This document shows, one piece after another, positions 755 to 1,750 of a stretch of 64,000 bases of DNA (its first letter is position 1; every line of letters begins with the position of its first letter). A program made the translations under genes and the position numbers. This stretch comes from a virus (Duplodnaviria > Heunggongvirae > Uroviricota > Caudoviricetes), in IMG/VR virus record IMGVR_UViG_2609460332_000008, one strand, 5' to 3'. Under the pieces are notes generated by a model, which was not told where the DNA came from, made no database searches, and saw nothing but the letters and a program-made list of their open reading frames with translations.

Positions 755-1492
755 TCACTTCGGGTAGGGCTGAATCCTGAATAGCTTAGTGTTTAGGCGC
801 TTTTTTGCGCGCTTGTTCAGGAATCTGATGTAGCGATACTGATTAAATTTGTGTACCACGGCCCGCTCCTTATTAGCCCGCAAATACTCGCCTCGTTGTC
901 CTCCACGCTTAATCGCGTTCATCGTTATCTCGTGATACCACTCGCCGTCCAGCTCGTAGAACGTGCTTTCATGGCTACCAATAAAATCAAAATTCGACGC
1001 CTGATACACAACGCCTGCGCGTCCGCAGCGTTCGTCTGCAAAGGACTGAACCCACTCCACTGACGGATACAATAACCTGATGGTTTTTAGCGCATAGCTG
1101 ATGGCCCGTGATTCAGAGTTGCGGGGCATGTCGTCGTGTAGCCACATGCGGTTCAGTTCCATATAGCCCCGGTTATCCGTTTCCAGCACAACACGACGCC
1201 CTGAGTTGGGGTTAAGGGCATATCCCCACTGAAGAACGCCAACCAGATCACGTCCGCTGAATACGCCAAGATGCAGGTAGGAGTTATTCACAAAACGGCG
1301 GGAATAGTGTTTTGTCTGAATGATTGTGCGGGCCAGCCAGCAGGATATGGTTTCAACGCGCAGCTCCTTTGAACCATAGCCGACAATCCGGCCTTCATAC
1401 TCAATAACGCAGGGTTTTGTCAGAATGCGTGATTTCTTCTCTTTTCCCACAATACAGCTCCGTGGGATGCTCTTTGGCATTCGATATGACAA
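755..1492 (-). CDS. mom: DNA modification protein Mom (adenine modification, anti-restriction)
   Basis: Translation [30 protein letters not shown]... is near-identical to remembered Mu Mom; last gene before Mu right end; true start may be the internal MPKS Met. Confidence 0.85.
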
Positions 1493-1586
1493 TGTAACGT
1501 TTACAGCGAGGGCATTTAATTTCTATATGCTTAAAACCTCCTTTAAACAGTAATTTATTGCAGTTTTTACAGCGAACAGAGTCCAT
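1401..1586 (-). CDS. com: Com, zinc-finger translational activator of mom
   Basis: [33 protein letters not shown]... with CxxC...CxxC motif, overlapping mom 5' end as in Mu; start placed at internal Met (ATG 1584-1586). Confidence 0.8.
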
Positions 1587-1613
1587 GATTCCCCCTGTGT
1601 AATAACCAGACAT

Positions 1614-1750
1614 GACCGCCCGGAGGGCTGGGGGTATTTAATCACAACTGATGCAAACCGACGATCGATATGATGCTATCGATCGTCATAAACTATACAA
1701 AATGATTATTTATAAGTACGCTCCACATCCACTTTTCATGCTGAATTGCT
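1614..1750 (-). promoter_or_regulatory. mom operon regulatory region with clustered GATC (Dam) sites
   Basis: GATC at 1663-1666 and 1681-1684 within cgatcgatatgatgctatcgatcg upstream of com; position corresponds to the Dam/OxyR/C-regulated Pmom of Mu. Confidence 0.55.

Follow-up and report, generated by a model that had tools for sequence, protein, structure and literature searches.

Described com-mom operons and the locus in the window

The mom operon of bacteriophage Mu is the textbook case of a toxic gene under multi-layered control, exerted by Dam, OxyR, C, Fis, and Com. To our knowledge, the studies of mom regulation have all used the Mu-type promoter. The DNA analyzed here is a stretch of 64,000 nucleotides from a Caudoviricetes record (IMGVR_UViG_2609460332_000008; “the window”), and its positions 755..1750 can be assigned to a com-mom operon at the right end of a Mu-like prophage (640..34209), an intact copy of the Mu anti-restriction operon. 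Comparison identifies it as a known system, the regulatory wiring of which is a variant frequently met in Escherichia coli prophages. Its gene order and its place beside attR agree with those of Mu, D108, SfMu, and the Yersinia Mu-like phages. Shared with Mu are also the 50-nt overlap of com and mom, the GUG start codon of mom, the CCCC finger of Com, both RNA hairpins, and two PvuI/GATC sites 18 nt apart. In contrast, the window possesses a Com protein with 73 to 74% identity to that of Mu, no C gene, no gin gene and G segment upstream, and a control region that is 11 nt shorter and devoid of the third GATC, the C box, the T6 tract, and TAAGAT. The overall best explanation, held with slightly better than even confidence, is an intact operon that would be transcribed independently of C, with read-through from upstream late genes as the most likely route.

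The product of mom is an enzyme with a GNAT fold that transfers glycine from Gly-tRNA(Gly) onto the N6 of adenine in double-stranded DNA, and mutagenesis indicated a need for R111, S124, D149, and R151, plus H58, Y59, W48, Y159, and W181 (PMC13219725). The equivalents of these residues and of Y28 are kept in the window (numbering of the 241-aa form in PMC13219725; the position in the Mom of the window is this number minus 10). The mom-containing open reading frame (ORF) on the minus strand, 755..1492, matched the Pfam model Mom (PF25680, E value of 7e-76) at profile positions 1 to 202 of 202. When the coordinates of mom and com were set with the Mu-equivalent starts, all 231/231 amino acids of Mom aligned with Mu Mom at 97% identity, with 6 substitutions and no frameshift or stop. 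The com-containing ORF, 1401..1613 on the same strand, matched Zn_ribbon_Com (PF10122) with 30.2 bits (cutoff, 22.9), and the cysteine residues of the N-terminal zinc finger, Cys6, Cys9, Cys25, and Cys28, are kept. No NCBIfam model matched Mom, Com, or the Mor-like protein described below, and an Rfam scan of positions 1..4000 at an E value of ≤1 gave no match. A Mom scan of genome contigs yielded 3 loci only.

By homology, the window Mom should be a tRNA(Gly)-dependent DNA adenine glycyl-transferase. The glycine adduct on adenine is predicted to rearrange to N6-carbamoylmethyl-adenine, which would shield the phage DNA from restriction. A previous reading of the letters alone (the “sequence-only reading”) had described the module as intact and com as overlapping the start of mom, and both statements were borne out. 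It had also expected that Mom modification is probably retained. This appears reasonable with respect to the enzyme and to the translational control, but the transcriptional control by the Mu C/Pmom scheme is excluded, as outlined below.

Two frequent classes of com-mom control regions

A Mom scan of IMG/VR yielded 44 loci, the upstream regions of which were sorted into three groups. “Class A” is the Mu type with three GATC sites, C box, T6 tract, and TAAGAT. “Class B” is the type of the window, with 18 distinct variants, E. coli loci included. The few other lineages have a C-type look, CACCATAAYCC or CAATAA boxes, and a good −10 hexamer 26 to 37 nt before the com ATG. In a set of 5,426 complete E. 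coli genomes, mom was present in 97, the class A region in 47, and the class B 153-nt block in 49, so that class B is about as frequent as class A and makes up about half of the mom-bearing E. coli prophages; E. coli KFu019 (NZ_CP091700) and STEC388 (NZ_CP041425) are examples of strains with the prophage type of the window. The six class A matches listed abut gin, and the block of the four class B loci with inspected flanks is situated behind co-directional tail-fiber-type genes. The class B control region found no match in the deposited phage genomes of the collection searched.

The long contigs of IMG/VR connect the class of the control region to the activator genes. A C homologue was present in 7/7 class A contigs, and all 8/8 class B contigs had the window-type Mor and no match to C, in a scan that finds only fairly close relatives of C. 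Wherever a long viral contig that was examined had the class B control region, its prophage thus appeared to be C-less. The mom and com ORFs are intact with 95 to 99% identity in dozens of independent class B copies. In the part of com that does not overlap mom, 16/45 third positions were variable among the class B variants versus 7/91 first and second positions; because the variability of the third positions was far above that of the others, the Com protein appears to be under purifying selection.

These loci may be regarded as a second, equally common natural version of the operon, in which the enzyme, the Com switch, and the Dam/OxyR palindrome are kept and both the C layer and the C gene are gone. 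This raises the question which control layers are indispensable and how late timing arises without C. It also calls for caution during annotation, since the presence of com plus mom does not imply Mu-like regulation. A limited literature search found no published study of the class B wiring. Promoter wiring aside, the locus is an ordinary prophage anti-restriction module of modest interest.

Parts of the control region that are kept and parts that are lost

The GATC site at 1681-1684 corresponds to GATC1 of Mu and that at 1663-1666 to GATC2, so that the two sites pointed out by the sequence-only reading are present as homologues of Mu sites. Both are CGATCG (PvuI) sites in a perfect 11-nt inverted repeat, GACGATCGATA / TATCGATCGTC, with a 6-nt spacer at 1660-1687. 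An alignment with Mu and SfMu indicated conservation of TATAG, GACGATCGA, and ATCGATCG and the same 18-nt spacing of the GATC sites. A pair with this spacing is also present in 4/5 other lineages (L008, L009, L051, and L052); the distance in L050 is 31 nt. The spacing by itself is of no statistical significance: about 4.3 GATC gaps of ≤18 nt are expected in the window and 4 of ≤20 nt were seen, with about 1.6 expected in the GATC-poor prophage. The pair is meaningful because it is conserved in Mu, in the window type, and in most other lineages, not because of its spacing. As an additional observation, the prophage has about 2.3-fold fewer GATC sites than expected from base composition (55 seen versus about 128), with a GATC-free stretch of nearly 5 kb in the tail-fiber/baseplate region (3477-8455), and the two clustered sites upstream of com are conspicuous against this background.

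The palindrome matched the OxyR consensus at 12/20 specified positions, which equals the value for Mu in the same register. The best register of Mu, which reaches into the GATC3 region, scored 13/20, and the window had 9/20 there by hand count. Since a score of 12 occurs 44 times on both strands of the whole window, the match is weak evidence by itself. With 8/43 variable columns, versus 16/45 com third positions, the Dam/OxyR element is the least variable non-coding segment of class B. In its GATC sites within a dyad that partly matches the OxyR consensus, it resembles the Dam/OxyR switches of E. coli agn43 and of the gtr operons of P22 and Salmonella, with just two GATC sites in the window.

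The sequence-only reading had considered the control region to be like that of Mu and had proposed an alignment with the Mu mom regulatory region. The GATC1/GATC2 pair, TATAG, and the OxyR match agree with this view, but only about 45 bp, from TATAG through GATC1 to GATC2, can be aligned with Mu Pmom, and the similarity collapses downstream of GATC2. The position of the Mu GATC3 is occupied by CATC in the window, leaving two of the three GATC sites of a Mu-type Pmom. The Mu C box, ATTAT-GCCCCA-ATAAC, is not conserved; the aligned sequence of the window is GTTGT-GATTAA-ATACC, the left half of which is variable in class B. Neither a Mu-type C dyad, TTAT-N5-6-ATAA, centered at −43.5 nor the T6 tract, the TAAGAT −10 motif, and the 19-bp spacer of Mu are present in the window. 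On the DNA level, blastn similarity to Mu stops at position 1576, ten bases inside com. A sigma-70 consensus scan of 600..1900 indicated no promoter-like site on either strand, and no NANNNT hexamer is located between GATC2 and the Shine-Dalgarno sequence of com in the window variant.

Class B aligned best with lineage L051, across the right C-box half (GATTAATAACCCCAG against GATTAAATACCCCCAG). For this reason, class B seems to descend from a C-type promoter by loss of GATC3 (through a G-to-C change), the left half-site, the T-tract, and the −10 motif. Between the palindrome and com, an element TGATTAAATA...GGGC has 7/28 variable columns in class B. The small GCCC-TCC-GGGC dyad is present in 18/18 class B variants with a varying central loop base (TCC, TCT, or TCA) and is not followed by a T-run on the gene strand. 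It could be the 5′ end of the mRNA, a protein-binding site, or a relic. A CCCCC/GGGGG helix in the com leader that would sequester the Shine-Dalgarno sequence was also considered. It is unsupported because the consensus fold of 13 class B com leaders contained the small GCCC/GGGC hairpin only, with no compensatory changes.

Translational control of mom by Com

Experiments using systematic evolution of ligands by exponential enrichment (SELEX) and selective 2′-hydroxyl acylation analyzed by primer extension (SHAPE) yielded CC(N)2-3GAG as recognition motif of Com, and the Com-target hairpin adjoins a second hairpin that buries the GUG start codon of mom (PMC6483171). The minimum free energy fold of the RNA from 1480 to 1446 gave both hairpins, the Com-binding one followed directly by the translation-inhibition hairpin, which carries the GGAG Shine-Dalgarno sequence of mom (1458-1461) in its loop. 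Neither of the two stems nor the CC and GAG parts of the motif changed among 11 sequence variants from different lineages; the loop of the inhibition hairpin did vary. The three bases between CC and GAG are AAA in the window, UGC in Mu, and CGG, CAG, ACA, UUC, UCA, or GUU elsewhere. Neither of the two hairpins displayed compensatory changes, so that the support comes from the pattern of conservation and not from covariation. This pattern does fit the published Com model closely. Given an intact Com and a preserved RNA target, translation of mom should still depend on Com.

The three variable loop bases are codon 38 of com, the most variable codon of this gene across the lineages. It encodes Lys38 (AAA) in the window, Cys in Mu, and Arg, Gln, Thr, Phe, Ser, or Val in others. 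Natural variation thus backs the SELEX-derived motif, with CC and GAG fixed and the three loop bases, which are one com codon, free to vary.

A single Mor/C-family activator and two Mor-type promoters

A tblastn search with Mu Mor and Mu C led to a single locus in the prophage, which encodes a protein with 63% identity to Mor and 32 to 34% to C. Its recognition region is Mor-like and not C-like, and a C gene was not found in the prophage by the search with Mu C, the single family match being this Mor-like one. The protein ends with ...YQPDLF..., which contains the C-terminal beta-clamp-binding motif QPDLF identical to that of Mu C, whereas Mu Mor has QPSLL (clamp-binding motifs of Mor/C proteins taken from PMC12867686). 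Because of this C-type motif, a role as late activator is plausible, and the sequence agrees with a direct action of the single activator in this function. Other features of the protein are an N-terminal EQDLF and a Pro/Arg-rich C-terminal tail of about 17 amino acids that is absent from both Mu proteins.

The sequence just downstream of the Mor-like gene is homologous to Mu Pm (AAGCCGGTAAATCCGGCTTTTTTT...) and precedes the gene of a GH108 endolysin instead of an operon with C. A second, identical box is located upstream of the gene I homologue. Both sites share with Mu Pm the AGCCGG-TAAAT box and the T-tract, and their −10-like hexamers are at the same distance as TATCCT in Mu Pm, which was assigned as the Mu −10 motif in this analysis. 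While Mu Pm drives the middle operon that encodes C, the Pm-type promoters of the window would drive late lysis and head genes. There is no third copy of the 22-mer anywhere in the window, none upstream of com, and no AGCCGG box about 22 nt before a −10 motif was found upstream of com. The number of 14-mers with ≤3 mismatches common to the com upstream region and the rest of the prophage was at chance level (about 26 estimated at two mismatches). A near-match to the Mor dyad at 4589-4603 was rejected as a chance event inside tail-fiber coding sequence with neither T-tract nor −10 motif, and a P2 Ogr-type box, TGT-N12-ACA, did not fit upstream of com by eye. The arrangement of a single Mor gene, no C, and both boxes recurs in L011, a related E. 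coli prophage.

With lysis and head genes directly under Pm-like boxes, the prophage looks as if it had a two-tier cascade of early and late genes in place of the three tiers of Mu. An equivalent of the Mu PP promoter for the tail genes was not found. At 24899-25150 and 25152-25748, a GH108 endolysin replaces the signal-arrest-release endolysin of Mu and is placed between the Pm-like promoter and a homologue of Mu gp18 with 69% identity. In L011, L096, and L097, an extra gene for a secreted protein (a moron) is located between mor and the Pm-like promoter. Just upstream of the gene I promoter, three 11-mers form direct repeats at 18103-18160, of the CCCCTTCAAAA type on the plus strand and TTTTGAAGGGG on the gene strand. 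This is the position of the strong gyrase site in Mu.

Proposed transcription of com-mom by late read-through and the alternatives

Because the C gene and the C-dependent parts of Pmom are all gone, the Mu C/Pmom scheme is excluded for the window, and we infer that transcription of com-mom is C-independent. The possible routes are ranked as late read-through ahead of a local activator-dependent promoter, an extended −10 promoter, a silent remnant, and finally the Mu-type scheme. In the read-through scenario, com and mom would be the last cistrons of the co-directional late tail-fiber transcript and would be expressed late, driven from the Mor-type promoters by the single Mor/C-family activator. 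As long as the DNA is un- or hemimethylated, the conserved Dam/OxyR palindrome would modulate transcription or hinder it, and a weak local promoter may add to the read-through. We tentatively regard this as the most likely main route, at somewhat less than an even chance. Four arguments favor it. The tail-fiber gene is co-directional with com across a gap of 164 nt, for which a terminator scan predicted no terminator-like site on the minus strand. The window variant has no NANNNT hexamer from GATC2 to the Shine-Dalgarno sequence of com, but every non-B lineage has one 26 to 37 nt before the com ATG. The stretch in which the −10 motif would be expected is the most variable part of the block (10/12 columns). 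Finally, class B follows co-directional tail-fiber-type genes (4 loci), and the class A matches listed abut gin (6). Several observations weigh against read-through as the main route. The variability of the palindrome (0.19) and of the TGATTAAATACCCCCAG element (0.25) is lower than that of the com third positions (0.36), a comparison of small numbers, which hints at a local function on the DNA level such as a promoter or an activator site. A repressor site makes most sense beside a start site. The nearest Mor-type promoter is at 18.07 kb, so that about 17 kb would have to be crossed, and a weak terminator-like hairpin is situated on this path at 16113-16127, after the major head gene. Three class B variants possess a good TATCCT 26 nt before the com ATG, as would be expected for a real local promoter.

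Such a local promoter could depend on an activator. The TGRTTAAATAYCCCCAG sequence (1628-1644) would then be the remnant right half of a C-type box, bound by the single Mor/C-family activator or by another factor, which would bring RNA polymerase to a poor −10 motif about 23 to 30 nt downstream, and OxyR on unmethylated GATC sites would block this promoter as in Mu. The element aligns with the right half of the Mu C box, especially that of L051 (GATTAATAACCCCAG against GATTAAATACCCCCAG). The TATCCT of three class B variants is located 23 nt after TAAAT, one off the Mor-type geometry of 22 nt in Mu Pm and the two Mor-type promoters of the window, and QPDLF makes a late-activator role plausible. 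However, the element is no dyad, the left half-site position is among the most variable columns, and the element is unlike the Mor box of this phage, AGTGA-AGCCGG-TAAAT. The window hexamer at the expected place, TGTCTG, is without the A and the final T, and the activator resembles Mor, not C, in its recognition region, so that this possibility is considered rather doubtful. Still less probable is an autonomous extended −10 promoter composed of TG (1643-1644), one base, and TTAAAT (1636-1641), with a weak −35 motif, TCGTCG (1659-1664), that overlaps GATC2, and a start near 1628-1629. The mRNA would begin with the GCCC-UCC-GGGC hairpin, and OxyR on the unmethylated palindrome, centered near −44, would occlude the −35 motif similar to the repression of agn43. 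The 18 class B variants fit this layout: GATC2/TCGTC is invariant and a 4-nt patch in the would-be spacer is variable, TG-n-TTAAAT changes only at n, the stem of the hairpin is fixed and one loop base varies, and the next 12 nt are hypervariable. On the other hand, TTAAAT is without the A at hexamer position 2, so that the sigma-70 scan finds no site here. In addition, with a promoter that needs no activator, a toxic function would be switched on from the prophage in dam+ cells, and no leader structure has covariation support. It is a long shot that class B prophages run com-mom without C from a methylation-gated, agn43-like promoter with the palindrome no longer far upstream of an activator site but over the −35 motif of TG-n-TTAAAT. 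If true, mom would be gated by the methylation state instead of the Mu late-gene cascade, possibly even from the resident prophage. That com-mom is silent, a decaying remnant kept only by the adjoining essential attR end, would agree with the missing recognizable −10 motif of the window variant and the hypervariable proximal upstream region. This is very improbable because evident purifying selection acts on the ORFs and the RNA elements: the ORFs are intact at 95 to 99% identity in dozens of independent class B copies, the Com target and the start-codon hairpin are invariant, and the com third positions vary more than the other two. The lowest rank, with next to no credence, is left for a Mu-type Pmom, activated by C and repressed by OxyR unless three GATC sites are Dam methylated. 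Mu and the window share GATC1, GATC2, and the flanking TATAG, but without a C gene, the TTAT-N6-ATAA box, the T6 tract, TAAGAT, and GATC3, and with the DNA similarity to Mu ending inside com, such a C-dependent scheme is already contradicted by the sequence.

Table 1. Coordinates of com-mom, its control elements, and related prophage features in the window
Feature	Position	Strand	Description
Right end (attR) of Mu-like prophage	640..700	−	89% identical to Mu right end; plus strand, TGAAGCGGCGCACGAAAAACGCG...
GC-rich hairpin	711..736		Just downstream of mom stop; flagged terminator-like on plus strand
mom	755..1450	−	GTG start, 1450-1448; TGA stop, 757-755; 231 aa
com	1401..1586	−	ATG, 1586-1584; 61 aa; zinc-finger translational activator of mom
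Translation-inhibition hairpin	1446..1466	−	CCCAC-GGAGCUGUAUU-GUGGG; mom GUG start in 3′ arm
Com-binding hairpin	1467..1480	−	AUGC-CAAAGA-GCAU; hexaloop; motif CC-N3-GAG is CCAAAGAG at 1470-1477
Class B com upstream block	1587..1712	−	Also found behind differing upstream genes in other prophages
Shine-Dalgarno sequence of com	1591-1595	−	GGGGG; in class B block
Hypervariable stretch	About 1606-1617	−	In class B block; 10/12 columns variable where −10 is expected
Small GC dyad	1618-1628	−	GCCCTCCGGGC; GCCC-TCC-GGGC; in class B block
Near-invariant 17-nt element	1628-1644	−	TGATTAAATACCCCCAG; in class B block
Dam/OxyR element	1660..1697	−	TATAG (1693-1697) plus 28-bp palindrome GACGATCGATA-GCATCA-TATCGATCGTC
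Tail-fiber gene	1751..3568	−	605 aa; PF08400; co-directional, directly upstream of com
Second, identical Mor-type box	18071..18092	−	Upstream of head protease (gene I) homologue; −10-like CATACT
Mor-type box	25806..25827	−	AAGCCGGTAAATCCGGCTTTTT; upstream of GH108 endolysin gene; −10-like CACCAT
Only Mor/C-family activator gene	25834..26283	−	Pfam Mor, PF08765, E value of 3.6e-30; after gemA, like mor in Mu
Left end of Mu-like prophage	34209		...GTGAATCAATACA

Neighboring genes and prophage context

The tail-fiber gene (Table 1) occupies the place of gin and the G segment. As the sequence-only reading had stated, the G segment is absent, and a tblastn search found no gin homologue anywhere in the window. 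On the strand of mom, the hairpin downstream of the stop codon has the stem CAGCGG/CCGCTG followed by TTTCGTTT and is the probable terminator of the operon.

A 5-bp target duplication, CCAGC, flanks the prophage at 635-639 and 34210-34214, and E. coli 4/1-1 harbors the empty site, where the flanks are joined via a single CCAGC within an inverse-autotransporter gene. Because of the Mu ends, the duplication, and this empty site, the region 640..34209 (33,570 bp) is judged to be a bona fide Mu-type transposition insertion in E. coli. Homologues of MuA, MuB, the repressor, and Ner complete the features of a Mu-like transposable prophage. Protein identities to Mu are 98% for A, 90% for B, 92% for c, and 99% for Ner, but just 27 to 50% for the late structural proteins. 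DNA identity is 89 to 91% in the early region, about 74% in gemA/mor, and 89% in the right end, 640..1576. By this composition, the prophage is a mosaic Mu-like transposable element.

The interrupted host gene (1-639 plus 34210-35756) encodes an E. coli inverse-autotransporter adhesin of the intimin/invasin type with Big domains, and its truncated 5′ part has a TGA stop codon that overlaps the Mu end (640-642). Beyond this gene and that of an alpha/beta-hydrolase lies a second prophage, of lambdoid type (about 37000-64000), the large plus-strand ORFs of which are ordered like those for terminase, portal, tape-measure, and a host-specificity protein of 1,160 aa. Annotations of the neighboring genes in the related strain 4/1-1 are ybcN, ninE, rusA, and Q.

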